Source: Alphaproteobacteria bacterium | GTDB taxonomy: Bacteria > Pseudomonadota > Alphaproteobacteria > JAAXGF01 | DNA: 64,000 bases | Direction: 5' to 3' | Assembly (NCBI GenBank): GCA_963555825.3 | Contig: CAUVXB020000001.1 | Span: 128,001 to 192,000, forward strand | In this document: positions 38,800 to 44,721 of the stretch, in pieces | Layout: every line of letters begins with the position of its first letter | How positions within the stretch are numbered: position 1 is the stretch's first letter | Translations under genes and position numbers: made by a program | Notes under the pieces: model-generated | Database searches by the model: none | Seen by the model: only the letters and a program-made list of their open reading frames with translations | What the model was told of the DNA's origin: nothing

Positions 38800-39102
38800 A
38801 TGCGCGAATGCCGAACCATGAACGAAGTACGCGAAGAGATCGACCGGCTCGATCGCCAGCTCGTCACGCTGCTCGCCGAGCGCTCCGGCTATGTCGGCCA
38901 AGCGGCGCGTATCAAGACGCAGGAAAATCAGATCCGCGACGTAGCGCGCATCGACGACGTCATCGCCAAGGTCCGGCTGCACAGTGAGACCGCGGGCCTC
39001 GATGCCGACCTCGCCGAACGCATCTGGCGCGGCATGATCGAAAGTTTCATTGCTCACGAGCACGCCCAACACCGGCGCATCCACCGTCGCGAGCCGGGCT
39101 AG
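38800..39102 (+). CDS. AroQ-type chorismate mutase / isochorismate-pyruvate lyase
   Basis: CRTMNEVREEIDRLDRQLV.LL.ER...AARIK. Confidence 0.92.
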   Translation: MRECRTMNEVREEIDRLDRQLVTLLAERSGYVGQAARIKTQENQIRDVARIDDVIAKVRLHSETAGLDADLAERIWRGMIESFIAHEHAQHRRIHRREPG

Positions 39103-40277
39103 CGCGGCAATCCGAACAGCGGCCTTAGGCGCACGCCGATCCAGGTGCCGGCCAGCGCGCAGACGATCCACAGCCAGCCGTGCAGGCTGGTCGAGGCGAC
39201 GCCCGAGAAGAAGGCGCCGATGTTGCAGCCGAAGGCGAGCCGGGCGCCGTAGCCCATCGCCAGACCGCCGATCACCGCCGCCAGGGCGCCGCCGGGCGCG
39301 ATGCGGCGTGTCGGTGCAAACCGACCGGCGAGCCCCGCGGCGGTCAGCGCGCCGAGCACGATGCCGATGTTCATCACCGATGTGACGTCGTCGAACACGC
39401 CGCCGGCCATCGCGCGCGCCGGGAACCCGCCGCTCCAGAAGGCGCTCGCCGCCGGGTCCCAGCCGAGCACGGCGGCGGCCTTGGCGCCCCACAAGGTGAA
39501 GCCCCAGGTGATCGTCCAGGGGTGGCCGGCGATCAGCAGAGTCAGCCAATTGAGCAACGCGAGCAATCCGGCGCCGAGCAATAGCGGCCATGGTCCGCGG
39601 GCGAGGTCGCGCCAACCCAGCCGGCGGCTCCAGAGCGGCCGCTGAGCGACCGCGCCGGCCCAGCGGCGCAGACCAAACCAGAGCGCGCCGAGCACTGCGA
39701 TTTGGAGCGCGAGCGCGAGCGGCCAGCCGAACTCGGCGGCCAGCGAGACGCTTCGCCAGCGCGGCGCGGTGGCCCAGAATTCCAGGTCGAGGCTGCCCCA
39801 CAGCCCGCCGGCGCAAAAGGCGACGAGCGTGATCACCATACGCGTCGAACCGCCGCCGACGGTGTAGAGCGTGCCGGAGCCGCAGCCGCCACCGAGCTGC
39901 ATGCCGAGCCCGAAGATCAGGCTGCCGAAGGCGACCTGGAGGCCGACCGGCGCAACCGCGCCGACCACGCCATGGCCGAACACGCGGCCCTCGGCGAGCA
40001 CCGGCGCAAACAGCAGCATCGCCGCGCCGAGCATGACGAGCTGCGCGATGACGCCGGAGACGTCGCGCCGAACGATCGCATTGCGGTACGCCGCTGTGAA
40101 GCCGAACGCCGCGTGATACAGGCTGACGCCGAGCAATCCGCCGACCAGGAACAGCGCGCCGGGCTTCCAGCCATCGGTGGCCAGCAAAGCCGCGCCGCCA
40201 ACCAGGACGACGGCGCCGAACCCGGCGATCACCGGCTGTGCCGGCGGTTCGGTGATGGTGCTCGACGCGGTGCTCAT
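39099..40277 (-). CDS. YeeE/YedE family sulfur-compound transporter
   Basis: FGLGMQLGGGCGSGTL and MGYGARLAFGCNIGA. Confidence 0.93.
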   Translation of the reverse strand: MSTASSTITEPPAQPVIAGFGAVVLVGGAALLATDGWKPGALFLVGGLLGVSLYHAAFGFTAAYRNAIVRRDVSGVIAQLVMLGAAMLLFAPVLAEGRVFGHGVVGAVAPVGLQVAFGSLIFGLGMQLGGGCGSGTLYTVGGGSTRMVITLVAFCAGGLWGSLDLEFWATAPRWRSVSLAAEFGWPLALALQIAVLGALWFGLRRWAGAVAQRPLWSRRLGWRDLARGPWPLLLGAGLLALLNWLTLLIAGHPWTITWGFTLWGAKAAAVLGWDPAASAFWSGGFPARAMAGGVFDDVTSVMNIGIVLGALTAAGLAGRFAPTRRIAPGGALAAVIGGLAMGYGARLAFGCNIGAFFSGVASTSLHGWLWIVCALAGTWIGVRLRPLFGLPR

Positions 40278-40280
40278 CGA

Positions 40281-40748
40281 CTAACCGTCGAGCATGTCGG
40301 CGCGCAGCATCCAAGCGACGTACCAGCCGCTGGCGGCGCCGTGTTCGAGGCATACCATGGTAGCCGGGCGAAACGCCGCGACGACGACGTCCTCGCTGCC
40401 GACGACGAGCCGCGCGGCGAGGTCCCCCATGAACGGCAAATGGCCGACCAGCACGGTGTTCTCTTGCAATCCGCTGAACTCGTTGGCGACCGGCGCGGTC
40501 GGATCGTTGGGTGCCAGGCCGTCGCGGGCGACGCAGGCGCCGGCGTCGGCCATCACCTCGGCGAGGATCTCGGCGGTCTGGCGCGCCCGCGTCTTGCCCG
40601 AATGCAGGATGCATTCGGCGCGCACGCCGCGCTGGCCGACGAACGCCGCGAGACGTTCGACGTTGGCGCGGCCCGCCGCGCTCAAGGACTGATCGGGGTC
40701 GACCTCCTTGGCGAGCGCCTCGCCGTGGCGGACGAGGTAGAGCTTCAC
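40281..40748 (-). CDS. sixA: Phosphohistidine phosphatase SixA
   Basis: YLVRHGEA, SGKTRARQTA, LVGHLP. Confidence 0.9.
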   Translation of the reverse strand: MKLYLVRHGEALAKEVDPDQSLSAAGRANVERLAAFVGQRGVRAECILHSGKTRARQTAEILAEVMADAGACVARDGLAPNDPTAPVANEFSGLQENTVLVGHLPFMGDLAARLVVGSEDVVVAAFRPATMVCLEHGAASGWYVAWMLRADMLDG

Positions 40749-40882
40749 GGGCGGTCCTTCCTGGCGGTGTCGTCGATAACGCCGAGTCTATACCCGAACC
40801 GGCCATTTCGAAAACCGGCGGCGAGTGGCGGAAATTCAGCTAAATTGACGCGCGGTCGGCAGGTAGACGCTTTGGAGGCATC

Positions 40883-41347
40883 ATGATCGAAGTCAACGGG
40901 ATGGCGCACGTCATACTCACCGTGAGCCAGTTCGACAAAGCCCGCGAATTCTATTCGGCGTTGTTGCCGTCCTTCGGCATGGAGCTGATCCACGACGGCG
41001 CCGACTTCTGCTATCACGTCGGCGGCCGGACGGCGATCGGCATCCGGCCTTGCGACGAGGAATGCGCCGGCGAACGTTTCAACCAGTTGCGCGTCGGCCT
41101 GCACCATATCTGCCTCAGGGCCCGTTCCCGCGAGGACGTCGACCAGGCCGGCGCCAAGGCGGCCGAACTCGGCGCCACGATCGTGCGCGGCCCGCAAGAC
41201 GGTGACTGGGCGCCGGGCTACTACTACGTGCTGTTCGAGGATCCCGACGGCATACGCCTCGAAGTGAATTTCGTTCCCGGGCAGGGCTTGTTGAAGAAAG
41301 GCGCGCGGTTCGATCCCGGGACCGGTTATGCCGCCGAGCCGGCCTGA
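40883..41347 (+). CDS. VOC/glyoxalase family protein
   Basis: AHVILTV, GLHHICL, FEDPDGIRLE. Confidence 0.92.
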   Translation: MIEVNGMAHVILTVSQFDKAREFYSALLPSFGMELIHDGADFCYHVGGRTAIGIRPCDEECAGERFNQLRVGLHHICLRARSREDVDQAGAKAAELGATIVRGPQDGDWAPGYYYVLFEDPDGIRLEVNFVPGQGLLKKGARFDPGTGYAAEPA

Positions 41348-41596
41348 GGCCGCCGGCGCGCATATTCTCTCTGTCGCCGGACTTCGCGAGACGATAGGTA
41401 ATACCAAGGATCAGTGATAAAGACCCGTAGAGATCGCGTCCGCTTTTCGCCGGTGAGGCAAGGGAGCCGCGGGCGATGCAGCGCATCGGCTAGGCAACCT
41501 GACGCCCTCCAGCGATAAGCGGACGTGACCCGAAGGGCGGCGTGCCGAGGCTCCCGGACGTCGTTCCACCCATCTTGCGATGCCCCTCCTATTGCC

Positions 41597-42186
41597 ATGT
41601 GTGGACGGCTCCCTGTTGGCAAGAGATTTTGTGACGTTGATGCAAGCTGGTCGGGTGCTGCCATGTGTCCGGCCTTTTGGTGCGGCGTACATGTGTGGAC
41701 GGCTCCCTGTTGGCAAGAGATTTTGTGACGTTGATGCAAGCTGGTCGGGTGCTGCCATGTGTCCGGCCTTTTGGTGCGGCGTACATGTGTGGACGGCTCC
41801 CTGTTGGCAAGAGATTTTGTGACGTTGATGCAAGCTGGTCGGGTGCTGCCATGTGTCCGGCCTTTTGGTGCGGCGTACATGGCCGCTGGCCCTAATGCGA
41901 TCCGCGGGGTCGGGTCCCATGTGTGGACGGCTCCCTGTTGGCAAGAGATTTTGTGACGTTGATGCAAGCTGGTCGGGTGCTGCCATGTGTCCGGCCTTTT
42001 GGTGCGGCGTACATGGCCGCTGGCCCTAATGCGATCCGCGGGGTCGGGTCCCATGTGTGGACGGCTCCCTGTTGGCAAGAGATTTTGTGACGTTGATGCA
42101 AGCTGGTCGGGTGCTGCCATGTGTCCGGCCTTTTGGTGCGGCGTACATGGCCGCTGGCCCTAATGCGATCCGCGGGGTCGGGTCCC
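41597..42186. repeat. Tandem array of IS1111 right-end copies: 94+94+134+134+134 bp
   Basis: Units start with ATGTGTGGACGGCTCCC at 41597, 41691, 41785, 41919 and 42053. Confidence 0.97.
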
Positions 42187-42265
42187 AGTCATAAGCACGC
42201 GCTCGAGGCGCCGTGGCTATAGCGGGTTTTCCCGATCCTCGGTTCGACCGATTTTGCATTACGTC
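42100..42265 (-). ncRNA. Predicted bridge/seek RNA of the IS1111 element (boundaries approximate)
   Basis: Segments matching the donor junction (TCGCATTA ~ CCGCATCA; ACACATG) and the target (CTATAGCCA ~ CTATTGCCA; TATG) on either side of hairpins. Confidence 0.75.
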
Positions 42266-42308
42266 ACTTACACTCCGCCAAACTCGTGAACGCCTTGTTT
42301 TCGTCGGC

Positions 42309-43331
42309 CTAGGCCGTCGCGGGCCTGCGATAGGTTCCGCCATGTCTCAGAAGCGCCCAGGCAATGCGGGCGTTCTTGTTGGCCAGCGCCACGGCCGCGA
42401 CCTTGGTCGGCTTGTCGGCGATGATGTTGGCAAGCCATGGATCGGTCGTGCCGCGTCGCTTGGCGTGGCGGATGACCGTCATGGCGCCGGCGACCAGCAG
42501 CCAGCGCAGGTATTGATCGCCCTGCTTGGAGATCCGCCCCATGCGCTCCTTGCCACCGGTCGAGTTCTGTCTTGGCACCAGCCCGATCCAAGCGGCCATT
42601 GAGCGGCCCGATTTGAAGATCGACGGATTGGCAATCGAAGATGCCAGCGCGCTCGCCGTGATCGGTCCGATGCCGGGTGTGGTTTCGAGACGCAGGCTCT
42701 CTTCGTTCGTCCGGTGCCAGGCGTGGATACGCCTCTCAGCGCCGACGATCTCCCGCTCCAGCGACAGCAACTGCCGCGCCAGCCCTTCCAGGCAAGTCCG
42801 CGCCAGGGGCGGAATGCGCTCATCCGCCTCATCGCTGATCACCGCGAGCAGCTCCTTGACCTGCGGCAACCCGGTTCGCGCCACCACCCCGAACTCCGCC
42901 ATGTGCGCCCGCGTAGCGTTGACCAGCATGGTTCTCTGGCGGACCAGAAGCTCGCGCGTTCGGTGCAGCATCAGAACGCTCTGCTGCTCGACGCTCTTCA
43001 CCGCGACAAAGCGCATCGTCGGGCGCGTGACGGCCTCGCAAATAGCCTCCGCATCGGCAGCGTCATTCTTGTTCCGCTTCACGTAGGGCTTCACATAGCG
43101 CGGCGGCATCAGCTTGACCTCATGCCCAAGCGCCGCGATCTCCCGCGCCCAGTAATGCGCGGTCGCACATGCCTCCATACCAACCAGGCAGGGCGGCTGT
43201 TTCTCGAAGAAGGCCAGCACCTGACGCCGCCTCAACTGACGGCGGACGACCACGGTTCCCTCGGCGTCAACGCCATGCACCTGAAATACGTTCTTCGCAA
43301 GATCAACACCGATCGTGATAACTTCGTTCAT
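42309..43331 (-). CDS. IS110-family DEDD recombinase
   Basis: GVDLAKN, MEAC, KNDAADAEAI, GLVPRQNSTGGK, ISKQGD.YLR, ALANK.ARIAW. Confidence 0.97.
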   Translation of the reverse strand: MNEVITIGVDLAKNVFQVHGVDAEGTVVVRRQLRRRQVLAFFEKQPPCLVGMEACATAHYWAREIAALGHEVKLMPPRYVKPYVKRNKNDAADAEAICEAVTRPTMRFVAVKSVEQQSVLMLHRTRELLVRQRTMLVNATRAHMAEFGVVARTGLPQVKELLAVISDEADERIPPLARTCLEGLARQLLSLEREIVGAERRIHAWHRTNEESLRLETTPGIGPITASALASSIANPSIFKSGRSMAAWIGLVPRQNSTGGKERMGRISKQGDQYLRWLLVAGAMTVIRHAKRRGTTDPWLANIIADKPTKVAAVALANKNARIAWALLRHGGTYRRPATA

Positions 43332-43551
43332 GGACGGCTCCTATTTCCCTGTGGTTCATCGAAACCACCATTTTGGCACCTAGATGCCTGCGGGTGGGAG
43401 CCGTCCACCGCATCATACATGGGCATCGCCGCGACGGGCGCGCCTAGCCGAGAACCACGGCAAGCCGTCTCTATGGGTCTTTATCACTGATCCTTGGTAT
43501 TAGCCGGCCGCGCGAGCGCGCCCGCGGCAGGCGGCCGACAGGGAGGAACAT

Positions 43552-44721
43552 ATGCCGGCATTCGAAGCGGCGGAGTATCGCGAGCGCCAGGCCAAGACCA
43601 AGGCGCGCATGGCGGCCGAAGGCGTCGATGTGTTGCTGGCCAGCGACCCGGCCAACATGTGTTACCTCTCGGGTTACGACGGCTGGTCATTCTACGTCCA
43701 CCAGCTGCTCGTCGTCGCGCTCGACGCCGACGAGCCGGTGTGGATCGGCCGCGGCATGGACGCGGGCGCCGCCAAGGTGACGACCTATCTCGCGCACGAC
43801 GAGATCCTGGGCTATCCGGACGACTATGTGCAGTCGACCGAGAAGCACCCGATGGACTACGTCGCCGGCGTGCTCGAGGCGCGCGGCTGGGGCGGTCTCC
43901 GTATCGGCGTCGAGATGGACGCCTACTATTTTACTGCCGCCTGTCTCGCCGCGCTCGAACGCAACCTGCCGAATGCCACGTTCGTCGATGCCACGGGGCT
44001 CGCCAACTGGGTGCGCATCGTCAAGTCGCCGGCCGAACTCGAATACATGCGGCGCGCCGCGCGCATCGTCGAGCGCGTCATGGCGACCGCCTTCGACGCC
44101 GTCAGCCCCGGCGTCAGACAGTGCGACGCGGCGGCGGCGATCTATCAGGCCGAGATCAGCGGCACGCCCGAGTTCGGCGGCGACTACACCTCGCTGGTGC
44201 CGATGCTGCCGTCCGGCGTCGGCACCTCGACGCCGCATCTCACCTGGACCGAAGATCCGTTCGTCGAGGGCGAGGCGACGATCCTCGAACTCGCCGGTTG
44301 CCACCGCCGCTACCACTGCCCGATGGCGCGTACCGTGTTCCTCGGCACGCCGCCCACCAAGATGGCCGACACCGCCGCGGTCGTCGTCGAGGGGCTCGAG
44401 GCGGCGCTCGACGCGGTCGAGCCGGGCATGACCGCCGAGGCGGTCGAGGCCGTCTGGCGCGCGACCATCGCGCGCCACGGTATCGTCAAGGATTCGCGCA
44501 TCGGCTACTCGACCGGTCTCAACTATCCGCCCGACTGGGGCGAGCACACGATCAGCCTGCGCCCCGGCGACAAGACGGTGCTCGAGCCGAACATGACGCT
44601 GCACATGATCCCCGGCGTCTGGTTCGACGACTGGGGCATCGAGATCAGCGAGTGCTTCCGCGTCACCGAAACGGGTGCGGAGCCGCTCGCCGACGTGCCG
44701 CGCGAACTGGTCGTCAAATAG
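43552..44721 (+). CDS. doeA: Ectoine hydrolase DoeA/EutD (M24 family)
   Basis: YDGWSFYVHQ, WIGRGMD, YVQST.KHPM, GGDY, STPHLTW, YPPDWGE.TISLR. Confidence 0.88.
   Translation: MPAFEAAEYRERQAKTKARMAAEGVDVLLASDPANMCYLSGYDGWSFYVHQLLVVALDADEPVWIGRGMDAGAAKVTTYLAHDEILGYPDDYVQSTEKHPMDYVAGVLEARGWGGLRIGVEMDAYYFTAACLAALERNLPNATFVDATGLANWVRIVKSPAELEYMRRAARIVERVMATAFDAVSPGVRQCDAAAAIYQAEISGTPEFGGDYTSLVPMLPSGVGTSTPHLTWTEDPFVEGEATILELAGCHRRYHCPMARTVFLGTPPTKMADTAAVVVEGLEAALDAVEPGMTAEAVEAVWRATIARHGIVKDSRIGYSTGLNYPPDWGEHTISLRPGDKTVLEPNMTLHMIPGVWFDDWGIEISECFRVTETGAEPLADVPRELVVK

Follow-up and report, generated by a model that had tools for sequence, protein, structure and literature searches.

Insertion sequences (ISs) of the IS1111 type with a 3' seekRNA (ISEc11, ISKpn4, ISPa11 and ISPst6) encode a transposase of 330-350 aa combining DEDD and PF02371 domains with a GL-P----S(t)G motif, and possess subterminal inverted repeats and a long non-coding region 3' of tnp (Siddiquee et al. 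2024, PMC11187229). They insert at specific sites, with two short RNA matches to the target of which the top-strand match lies 5' of the bottom-strand match, and as described there they have one right end. For IS621, which belongs to the IS110 type and has a CT core and 5' bridge RNA, cell-free work indicates that a substrate matching one half of the bridge RNA suffices (bioRxiv 10.64898/2026.08.31.748434); the sections covered of that study contain no tandem end reiteration. In a preprint survey, non-coding repeat units were found in tandem next to IS110 transposases (n=468), with matches to the left-donor (LD) arm only at their boundaries, and its text reads these units as half-match recombination resolved in place (10.64898/2026.08.14.744561). 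In Pseudomonas putida, the IS110-family element ISPpu9 resides in extragenic palindromes, and its 3' non-coding module can circularise and can occur alone, giving several usable ends per element (PMC12288879).

The minus strand of the window (the whole 64,000-nucleotide stretch of DNA analysed) carries an element which, judged from its sequence, is an IS1111-type member of the IS110 family (Table 1). The transposase displayed the domains PF01548 (DEDD, RuvC-like, N-terminal; 1.7e-16) and PF02371 (C-terminal; 7.9e-26) and matched NF033542 'IS110 family RNA-guided transposase' with 350.6 bits against a cutoff of 140. Its length of 340 aa and the motif ...WIGLVPRQNSTGGK... agree with the range and signature given for the seekRNA elements (PMC11187229). 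A perfect 13-bp subterminal inverted repeat pair, GTGGACGGCTCCC (43396-43408) and GGGAGCCGTCCAC (42057-42069), lies inward of the TG cores, 5 nt from the left one and 3 nt from the right one. The long non-coding region 3' of tnp spans 257 nt from the stop codon (42309) to the first right end (42052), and the non-coding part upstream of tnp measures about 83 nt. Four other genomic copies match the canonical IS at 100% identity along almost all of its length, and a fifth matches it at 97%. The transposase shares about 60-64% identity with its nearest relatives on plasmids, and among 60 relatives searched, none of the same genus, the best foreign matches were 75% identical (87% over short pieces).

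Table 1. Positions of the element, its reiterated right end and its predicted guide segments in the window.
Feature	Position	Strand	Details
Right arm of ~300-bp MITE-like target repeat	41397..41595	.	
Whole element with four extra right-end units	41596..43415	-	TG core at both bounds: left TG 43415-43414, outermost right TG 41597-41596
Extra unit 4, 94 bp	41596..41689	-	IS 1273-1366; abuts target right flank GCAATAGG
Extra unit 3, 94 bp	41690..41783	-	IS 1273-1366; junction to unit 4 at 41690/41689
Extra unit 2, 134 bp	41784..41917	-	IS 1233-1366
Extra unit 1, 134 bp	41918..42051	-	IS 1233-1366
Canonical single-ended IS	42052..43415	-	1364 bp with both TG cores; 1362 bp inserted
Canonical right end	42052..42078	-	TTGCCA (-35-like), subterminal inverted repeat GGGAGCCGTCCAC, terminal CACACA-TG
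Predicted right-donor guide GCATCA, copy 1/5	42094..42099	-	Reverse complement of core TG + left-end ATGC
Predicted left-donor guide + core + 3 nt (ACACA-TG-GCA), copy 1/5	42115..42124	-	Crossover site X1301, used at locus D
Predicted stem 2 with inner hairpin GCGGC-CATGTAC-GCCGC	42127..42159	-	Loop contains crossover site X1273, start of 94-bp units
Predicted target-binding loop region, single copy	42177..42237	-	Outer stem GATCGG/CCGA(C), inner stem CCC/GGG, central hairpin 42198-42212
Predicted left-target guide plus core, GTGCTTA-TG	42190..42198	-	Also crossover site X1229, used at locus F
Predicted right-target guide CTATAGCCAC	42213..42222	-	Reverse complement of core TG + GCTATAG
Transposase / bridge recombinase, 340 aa, intact	42309..43331	-	DEDD_Tnp_IS110 + Transposase_20; NF033542; GLVPRQNSTG
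Left subterminal inverted repeat GTGGACGGCTCCC	43396..43408	-	
Left arm of ~300-bp MITE-like target repeat	43416..43503	.	

The insertion point of the IS is the loop of the central hairpin GCGATGCCC...GGGCATCGC of a MITE-like repeat. The specific site is a palindromic repeat, a likeness to ISPpu9. Unoccupied copies of the repeat read CCCATGTA-TG-GCAATAGG, and this empty site was present in five other copies, whereas TG flanks the insertion on either side at the occupied site. All six left junctions in this genome start TG-ATGCGG, and TG was likewise the core in 24/24 relatives. The recombination core is therefore the dinucleotide TG and not ATG, as had been proposed from the window sequence. 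Insertion is site-specific, as in the IS1111 group, and the target is not duplicated beyond the short shared core.

The predicted guide RNA loops lie in the non-coding end. Compensatory changes in 9 of 29 pairs are consistent with the target-binding loop structure, and the loops covary with each element's own insertion flanks among 24 relatives. The right-target guide matched the element's own right flank over at least 4 nt in 21 of these (mean 4.83 versus 1.82 +/- 0.33 when permuted, with a maximum of 2.88 in 2000 permutations), and the left-target guide matched at least four of five positions in 17 of them (mean 3.96 versus 3.08 +/- 0.13). As in the IS1111 group, the predicted guides give short matches to both target strands, the top-strand match 5' of the bottom-strand match. 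The right-donor guide was assigned by complementarity, and its assignment is weaker than that of the other guides. Searching 41200-43700 against Rfam (evalue mode) returned no bridge- or seek-RNA family and a single chance-level match. A promoter scan of 41400-43500 gave no sigma-70-like site, and we therefore make no claim about the TTGCCA hexamer beyond its position; on our own reading, TTGCCA, 17 nt and CATGAT could form a candidate hybrid promoter across the predicted circle junction. The abutted junction itself, right end (RE)-TG-left end (LE), was not found in the genome assembly.

The elements described with a seekRNA have one right end (PMC11187229), whereas here the end, with its donor-loop template, occurs five times. 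TRF, run on 39000-44000 of the window, reported two tandem-repeat rows with 100% matches, at 41596-41881 (period 94, 3.0 copies) and 41784-42187 (period 134, 3.0 copies). These form the 3' end of the minus-strand element: one canonical RE is followed, in minus-strand order, by extra units of 134, 134, 94 and 94 bp and then by the flank. Each unit ends in ...GGGAGCCGTCCACACATG. The extra units begin at one of two points, ...CCATG|TACGCC (IS position 1273), which lies in the loop of a covarying hairpin, or ...GACTG|GGACCC (position 1233), at the 3' foot of the predicted target-binding loop. The subterminal inverted repeat, the TTGCCA hexamer and both predicted donor guides are present in all five units, and the target guides occur once in the array-bearing element. 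The tandem array is real. Chance is excluded, because 13 of the 74 TRF rows found genome-wide (period at least 20, identity at least 90%) fall in four loci of this single IS.

Much of the original prediction survived this analysis. TRF bore out five head-to-tail right ends in two unit lengths at 100% identity, the two internal starts are those it had named, and the subterminal repeat and TTGCCA recur in 5/5 units as it had said. Its identification of an IS1111 bridge recombinase agrees with the DEDD and Transposase_20 domains, NF033542, GLVPRQNSTG, the 13-bp subterminal repeats and the covarying loops, and the DNA bears out its order of a single target loop with several donor loops after it. 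It had placed the array correctly with limits one base off (41596-42187), and had listed the lengths 94, 94, 134, 134 and 134 correctly while counting as a unit the innermost 134, which is the canonical end. The complete donor loop that it assigned to the 134-bp unit is there, and the 94-bp unit also holds a full donor guide pair.

The comparison with other genomic copies, which had been suggested as a check, revealed RE reiterations in four of the six full copies, with differing unit sets; two copies had none. The set in the window (locus A) is 134, 134, 94 and 94 bp. Locus D contains units of 872, 66, 66 and 66 bp; locus F two of 296, three of 138, one of 94 and several of 22-26 bp; and locus B units of 134 and 94 bp together with scrambled ones. 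Exact RE 14-mers numbered 32 in six loci, against seven IS bodies, with 15 at locus F. RE-motif tandem repeats were absent from the other IS1111-type families of the genome, which are 72-77% identical. Reiteration therefore tracks one IS family: arrays occur only in the family with 100%-identical copies, not in these relatives.

We counted 19 clean RE|X junctions in seven classes (X = IS 495, 1071, 1229, 1233, 1273, 1301 and 1343). All 19 read CACACA-TG|X, with an internal TG immediately before the crossover and the same terminal RE nucleotide as partner. The right sides of the seven classes are unlike the left end ATGCGG (forward match to LE 0-2 nt). A match of these right sides to the right target or right donor arm was considered and rejected, forward matches being 0-3 nt. 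The IS contains 93 TG sites, and a perfect 5-nt left-target or left-donor arm precedes only X1229 and X1301, both of which are used; they are the DNA predicted to encode the left-target and left-donor guides, respectively. X1071 matches the left-target arm at four of five positions, and X1233, at 42186/42185, lies 4 nt downstream of X1229. The left-donor guide segment (42115-42124) shares a 10-nt identity with the outermost RE|flank junction. Of the TG sites with a score of at least 4/5, 3/7 are used, compared with 4/86 of the other sites (Fisher p=0.008); when the comparison was confined to the non-coding region, the enrichment of arm matches was not significant (3/4 versus 3/12, one-sided Fisher p ~0.12, hand calculation). 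Four of the seven crossover sites have TG alone in common with the guides.

Other rearrangements were also seen. The scrambled units of loci B and F include non-RE junctions (for example IS 1339->1276 in B), F contains a 28-bp duplication between two CATG sites, and the related locus L071 carries a 62-bp non-coding duplication whose end is not at RE. Processes other than RE joining, or assembly noise, also act on these regions.

We favour, with a probability of roughly 0.72, the reading that the element's RNA-guided recombinase generated the array as a by-product, by joining RE, the left donor arm, to TG pseudo-sites. The right end of the integrated IS would present the arm CACACA followed by the TG core, to be recognised by the left-donor guide, and this end could recombine with pseudo-sites that contain TG at more upstream positions of the same IS sequence. 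The partner might lie on a sister chromatid, in another copy or on a small excised circle, or might arise by nested self-insertion trimmed by homologous recombination. Each event would yield an RE-TG-X(right side) junction, inserting one further [X..RE] unit after the old right end and before the flank. Since IS1111-type guide RNA is encoded at the 3' end, a copied unit would include the donor-loop template and the subterminal repeat. Guide templates resemble target and donor half-sites by design and would be among the pseudo-sites used. Unequal exchange between units could later alter their number, and the whole array could move with the element if the outermost end were used. We infer the recombinase as the maker of the junctions and likewise the route taken, and we regard the array as a scar, possibly tolerated. 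Neither the reciprocal deletion product nor a nested IS was found in this genome.

Junctions of this kind could also arise without a recombinase, by replication slippage or template switching in a hairpin-rich region where nascent strands realign at TG, ATG, CATG or ACACATG. All junctions do show 2-7 nt of microhomology, and crossovers fall in predicted hairpin loops. The non-RE duplications (28-bp CATG-CATG in F, 1339->1276 in B and 62 bp in L071) are of the type that slippage would leave, and changes in array length after the first duplication are probably due to slippage or homologous exchange. However, slippage gives no reason why 19 clean junctions of seven classes at four loci should end at the last IS nucleotide and never with flank, nor why the same RE boundary recurs in other elements. 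Four classes have only 2 nt of microhomology, although a 2-nt trace is what slippage would be expected to leave as well, and the related IS families in the genome have hairpins too but lack such arrays. We consider slippage as the source quite improbable. The earlier argument that breakpoints fixed at the core favour a recombinase over random slippage is strengthened by seven internal starts at four loci, always after TG and joined to the same RE nucleotide.

Recombinase-made joins at RE are consistent with related elements in other assemblies. L088 has a CCATG| junction in the homologous hairpin loop, and L121 and L124 have a CTG| junction in the target loop. The latter two are the same IS with the same 193-bp duplication at two different sites, which indicates that the array travels with the transposing element. 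On metagenome contigs the crossover lay at the core of the predicted left-target guide in L133, L141 and L153 and of the left-donor guide in L135 and L150, and 9/23 contained TG|G(G)CCAGCGG. RE reiteration was absent from 76 of 80 related loci. Adjacent RE motifs were found in none of seven cases on the rhizobial plasmids Microvirga pMVF16-2 and Bradyrhizobium pCB82_1, both rich in relatives.

An assembly or polishing artefact, in which mis-assembly over the repeated IS end created units that are absent from cells or present in a different number, had been raised as a real alternative. Loci B and F are suggestive in this respect, their interleaved, indel-ridden units resembling the garbled consensus of a heterogeneous pile-up, and the two-contig assembly does not state its read type. 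When contigs of four sequencing runs were aligned, with support thus coming from assembled contigs only, none among the pieces listed spanned the whole stretch. However, the window's units show 100% identity and clean junctions, and a 56-nt unitig of run X15 (41664-41719) crosses the junction of units 3 and 4 (RE|X1273) with no differences. Word depth in X15 was 549 and 379 for RE-proximal contigs versus 82 for the IS body, several-fold higher even if contig depths are rough. X15 is possibly the source sample of the assembly, in which case it would be independent of the assembler but not of the sample. Junctions of the same kind in unrelated assemblies also argue against an artefact, and the concern, weakened by these and by the X15 unitig, now appears highly improbable. 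The exact unit number, apparently five, rests on the assembly. Runs X1 and X2 left most of the array without cover. Their contigs (X1, 42051-42400+; X2, 42051-42316) are unbroken where the 134- and 94-bp junctions would branch, which hints at a single-ended IS form in those samples; as contigs show presence and not absence, we did not use this as evidence.

The units might instead be functional or semi-autonomous, with extra donor-loop RNAs raising donor-loop-to-donor-loop excision, spare ends titrating the recombinase, or satellites mobilised in trans. Each unit in the window indeed has a complete predicted donor guide pair, a subterminal repeat and an end. Among 16 metagenome contigs that could be tested, eight had a unit behind RE that was only 67-81% identical to the resident non-coding region, an identity low enough to indicate that the unit came from a different element. 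The abstract on ISPpu9 describes circles of separate modules (PMC12288879), and IS621 excision is reported to depend strictly on donor-arm recognition. Unit number is not conserved, however: the arrays differ at every locus, two of the six copies have none, and units of 22-26 bp lack a guide. Recombination between two different ISs would equally explain the heterologous units. Function of this sort strikes us as distinctly unlikely. A more specific proposal, which we hold to be unlikely, is that RE units are semi-autonomous modules (hairpin, donor loop, subterminal repeat and left-donor end; ~66-140 bp) pasted in trans behind any ...CACACA-TG end, other IS families included, with donor-loop RNAs feeding back on excision.

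Taken as a by-product of the recombinase, the array has close precedents. Like the surveyed LD-anchored tandem expansions, which are head-to-tail non-coding units beside a transposase at 95% identity or more with the left-donor arm only at their boundaries, it consists of at least two adjacent same-strand units beside a transposase (here 100% identical), with the left-donor arm and without the right-donor arm at the boundaries (10.64898/2026.08.14.744561). In view of that survey, the array is an unusually rich case of a known kind of event, and the phenomenon is less new than the original prediction had assumed. The survey required units of at least 50 bp and its text gives no crossover anatomy; here units extend down to 22 bp, partner sites are mapped to the base and all share the TG core, two are predicted guide templates, and four loci differ. 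The words 'IS1111' and 'self-target' are absent from its main text. The half-match recombination of IS621 (10.64898/2026.08.31.748434) is the mechanism that we invoke, for an element that differs from IS621 in type and core. The P. putida ssr9 is unlike these units in being a distinct small-RNA gene rather than a reiterated own end, and the abstract mentions no tandem arrays (PMC12288879). We found no base-resolution account of reiterated IS1111-type right ends in the literature searched, supplementary files being outside the search. The general phenomenon is already known from the preprint, and the value of this locus is in detail and material, not in a new principle.

For annotation, the results caution that reiteration of IS1111 ends can occur and that assemblies will probably garble arrays of this type. 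Work is under way to turn bridge- and seek-RNA recombinases into programmable genome editors, and the rules of their off-target activity are an active subject of study. This genome would provide a natural, base-resolved record of an IS1111-type enzyme with only the left-donor arm and TG matched, including joins at the DNA that encodes its own guides (19 clean junctions in seven classes). RE paired with X1229, X1273 or X1301 offers concrete substrates for half-site recombination in the IS1111 branch, which bear on the need for a guide and on the transposition and expression of multi-ended elements. If RE units were semi-autonomous modules, bridge/seek-RNA systems would be without self/non-self discrimination, with the guide template as a hot target and a built-in source of array growth and off-target events.

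Read on the minus strand, the window's array forms the 3′ terminus of an insertion sequence (IS). Tandem Repeats Finder (TRF) reported a 94-bp period (3.0 copies, 100% identity, 41596-41881) overlapping a 134-bp period (3.0 copies, 100%, 41784-42187). We parsed the minus strand greedily by exact matches against a single-ended, 1,366-nt copy whose first two bases (TA) are flank (window coordinate = 43418 minus IS position). The order was IS 1-1366, 1233-1366 twice, 1273-1366 twice, flank. The five right ends (REs) of the original prediction are therefore one end belonging to the IS and four extra units; the two unit lengths, the absence of differences and a shared terminus, at which every unit finishes (GGGAGCCGTCCACACATG), were likewise recovered, with the array coordinates corrected by one base. 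Each right-end unit also carries, antisense to the IS, a terminator-like hairpin followed by TTTTGG. These units supply five of the seven terminator-like hits in 41400-43500 (shuffled sequences, 2.0 ± 1.9).

The transposase matches NF033542 ('IS110 family RNA-guided transposase') and contains GLVPRQNSTG. The element has perfect 13-bp subterminal inverted repeats and 257 nt of non-coding sequence downstream of its transposase ORF. In the available text of Siddiquee et al. (PMC11187229) this motif, subterminal repeats and a long downstream non-coding region define the IS1111 group, in which the window element is placed on sequence grounds. The recombination core had been given as ATG. However, the left end TG-ATGCGGTGGACGG is common to all six genomic copies, whose two preceding bases vary, and five target repeats that lack the IS, like loose contig ends of sequencing runs X1 and X2, show the empty site CCCATGTA-TG-GCAATAGG. 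Because the shared left ends begin with TG and the empty sites carry it, the core is TG. In the window the IS occupies the central-hairpin loop of its target, a ~300-bp MITE-like repeat with ~30-bp terminal inverted repeats (ataccaaggatcagtgataaagaccc). Among 16 other hits listed, eight are a short-loop variant without the insertion site and eight have the long loop; five of the latter keep the identical empty site and three differ by one base.

To describe the guides we built an alignment from the final 200-230 nt of 30 distinct relatives. RNAalifold, run on 16 of them, predicted 29 pairs, nine with compensatory changes. The first domain is a predicted multiloop in which a central hairpin lies between two variable strands, one 5′ (CTATAGCCAC) and one 3′ (GTGCTTA-TG). 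Both flanks were available for 24 relatives, all with TG as left-junction core. In 21 of these, at least 4 nt of the 5′ strand matched the reverse complement of TG and the right flank found at that element (mean 4.83 nt versus 1.82 ± 0.33 when permuted; maximum of 2,000 permutations, 2.88). The 3′ strand repeated the left flank plus TG at four or more of five positions in 17 (mean 3.96 versus 3.08 ± 0.13 for permuted pairings). Judged by these matches the domain is the target-binding loop, its strands in the order given for IS1111 seekRNA in the available text of PMC11187229. The donor guides lie downstream: ACACA-TG-GCA covaries with the right end among aligned relatives (ATACATG with CATACATG, ACATATG with CACATATG), and GCATCA is complementary to the left-end TG-ATGC. 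As predicted, one target loop is combined with several donor loops: the window has a single set of target guides and five copies each of the donor guides, TTGCCA and the subterminal repeat. ACACATGGCA has a sixth occurrence at the outermost end/flank junction.

The genome (6.04 Mb; contigs C1, with the window at C1:128001-192000, and C2) holds six full copies, A-F, five essentially identical and one 97% identical. Unit number was compared among them, as had been proposed: the arrays at A, B, D and F differ, and C and E are single-ended. An exact right-end 14-mer occurs 34 times genome-wide, 32 of them in these loci, and an IS-body 40-mer seven times. Six of the 32 right ends adjoin flanks, 19 are followed by clean internal starts and seven by garbled or atypical ones. 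Loci A, B, D and F account for 13 of the 74 TRF rows genome-wide (period ≥20, identity ≥90%); no such row lies at the genome's other IS1111-type families (72-77% identical).

Mosaic right-end units at B and F consist of 5-20-nt pieces, with two non-coding parts interleaved and many small indels, and some of their junctions do not use the right end. They look like the garbled consensus of a length-heterogeneous array, or else record real template switching. In a perfect 28-bp duplication at F the left-donor-guide template (GGACACATG) is joined to X1273 (TACGCC); either an internal donor-arm look-alike replaced the real right end or slippage occurred between two CATG sites. Copy C lies tail to tail with an ~80% identical IS1111-type element, two bases from its right end, one seemingly inserted at the other's end. 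Elsewhere, short tandem arrays (2-7 copies) of the 20-bp sequence CCTTGTGGGATAAAGAATGG or similar variants lie at no fewer than 14 loci, on both contigs and either strand, and other perfect or near-perfect tandem duplications contain no right-end motif of the window IS.

Coordinates of the array, the genomic copies, the crossover sites (X, numbered by IS position) and neighbouring or comparable features
Feature	Position	Strand	Details
Transposase ORF	43331-42309	-	340 aa; DEDD_Tnp_IS110 + Transposase_20
Target-binding loop (predicted)	42237-42177	-	first domain
MITE-like repeat arms	41397-41595; 43416-43503
Terminator-like hairpins	41649-41674; 41743-41768; 41837-41862; 41971-41996; 42105-42130	+
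Locus A (window)	C1:169596-171417		extra units 134, 134, 94, 94
Locus B	C1:2233729-2235904		distal 134 and 94, scrambled units before them
Locus C	C2:524029-525392		no extra units
Locus D	C2:1402803-1405238		extra units 872, then 66 x3
Locus E	C2:1504945-1506304		no extra units
Locus F	C2:2096596-2099654		296 x2, 138 x3, 94, several 22-26 bp, scrambled units
Mosaic units	C1:2233729-2234568; C2:2098552-2099654		loci B; F
28-bp duplication	C2:2099104-2099163		locus F
Abutment of copy C and related element	C2:525392-525627
20-bp-unit arrays (examples)	C1:918031-918171; C1:1153667-1153806; C2:928738-928858
Duplications without right-end motif	C2:1372476-1373088; C2:1324774-1325328; C1:936380-936626; C1:344963-346224; C2:41125-42888		203 bp x3; 277 x2; 122 x2; 630 x2; 910 x1.9
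X495	IS 495		x1; after cTG; inside tnp
X1071	IS 1071		x2; after cTG; GCGCTTC-TG, 4/5 match to left-target arm
X1229	IS 1229		x4; after ATG; TG of left-target guide template
X1233	IS 1233		x3; after cTG; 4 nt beyond left-target core
X1273	IS 1273		x3; after CATG; stem-2 hairpin loop
X1301	IS 1301		x3; after ACACATG; TG of left-donor guide template
X1343	IS 1343		x3; after tTG; between halves of small palindrome at -35-like hexamer
Joined IS ends, related MAG G001	C97:2324-2635		first 223 nt, then IS 1277-1366 (last 90 nt)

The 19 clean RE/X junctions fall into seven classes, in all of which TG directly precedes the crossover. Only two of the 93 TG sites of the IS, X1229 and X1301, have a perfect 5-nt arm. 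Arm-like sites (at least 4/5) were used in three of seven cases and others in four of 86 (p=0.008). Within the non-coding region, which holds six of the seven crossover sites, the contrast is 3/4 versus 3/12 (p ~0.12, hand calculation), so guide mimicry accounts for some sites, not all.

An assembly artefact had been raised as an alternative. Support from the read runs comes from assembled contigs, and among the pieces listed none spans the array. Run X15 contains a 56-nt unitig identical to 41664-41719, a stretch that includes the 94/94 junction. Word depth in X15 was 549 and 379 for end-proximal contigs and 82 for the IS body (contig depths being rough), which agrees with the assembly, where ends outnumber bodies ~5:1. 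The source sample may itself be X15, in which case the run would be independent of the assembler, not of the culture. We conclude that RE/X junctions exist; unit number in the window is as assembled.

The source is apparently an alphaproteobacterium from the environment: relatives are alphaproteobacterial MAGs, and sponge and marine-sediment metagenomes are among the runs in which the sequence occurs. Of 80 loci whose transposases are 60-84% identical, three (L088, L121, L124) have perfect or near-perfect duplications ending at the right end. L088 carries 98 bp x2.1 (junction CACACATG/GATCAGC), its internal site GGCCATG/GATC lying in a hairpin loop homologous to that of X1273; L063 is its single-ended twin. 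L121 and L124 carry 193 bp x2 (junction CATACATG/GGCCGAC; internal site CTCTG/GGCC, in the target loop). Their ISs are 99.9% identical over 1,616 bp including the duplication and occupy two sites with different flanks, and thus the doubled end moved with the element. L071 has a 62-bp duplication whose boundary is not the right end.

A metagenome pattern scan for pairs of right ends spaced by 94-154 nt, a length window that biases which unit starts are visible, returned 23 contigs, which we sorted by hand. Units started at TG/G(G)CCAGCGG, the foot of stem 2, in nine, at the left-target-guide core in three, a few nucleotides past it in two, at the left-donor-guide core in two and elsewhere in four; three contained flank. 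Sixteen contigs had enough upstream sequence: six duplications were at least 99% and two 92-95% identical, and in eight the unit shared only 67-81% identity with the non-coding region of the resident element, and so derives from a different one. Such foreign units stand behind the right end of an IS1111-type element at L137, L138, L141, L143, L145, L146, L148 and L149. At L141 and L149 the upstream end stands alone as a solo unit, the 260 nt before it holding no recognisable non-coding region. On two rhizobial plasmids adjacent right ends were found in 0 of 7 cases. The joined ends in G001 represent either a miniature derivative that lost its interior or a mis-join of short reads.

Every clean junction reads LD-TG-X, where LD is the left-donor arm formed by the terminal IS bases; a normal right junction, LD-TG-RT (RT, right target), is shaped alike. 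All routes considered here would require enzyme action on the LD arm plus TG, with a partner that is imperfect. Sister chromatids could undergo unequal exchange between the RE/flank junction and X (route 1); a normal circle could insert at X of another copy, after which the long left repeats could recombine homologously and delete the stretch between them (route 2); or an [X..RE] minicircle could reinsert at an existing end (route 3). Each of these would yield exactly the LD-TG-X product. The 22-26-bp units speak against minicircles for those units. Left-end reiteration is absent among the copies, which fits route 1, or route 2 with targeting limited to the 3′ region.

The action required by these routes is the recombination with a half-matched partner reported for IS621 in the available text of a preprint (10.64898/2026.08.31.748434). 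A survey preprint (10.64898/2026.08.14.744561) describes, in its available text, tandem non-coding units with LD-only boundaries beside IS110-family transposases (n=468) and likewise reads them as LD action with an imperfect partner. The accessible part of the CazIS110 preprint notes that 3 of 96 excision colonies carried cargo repeats in tandem, which it calls transient by-products. The corresponding part of the ISPpu10 preprint states that a target stem-loop adds specificity, which may be relevant to the fact that several X sites lie in loops.

As a class, then, the phenomenon is already in the available text of the survey preprint, whose main text uses neither 'IS1111' nor 'self-target'. 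Supplementary files aside, our literature search found no description of IS1111 right-end reiteration at such detail. The present locus and genome contribute an IS1111-type example whose copied unit is the template of the donor guide, junctions resolved to the base with a TG core at every clean crossover, the use of both guide templates as partners, and four differently built arrays in a single genome.
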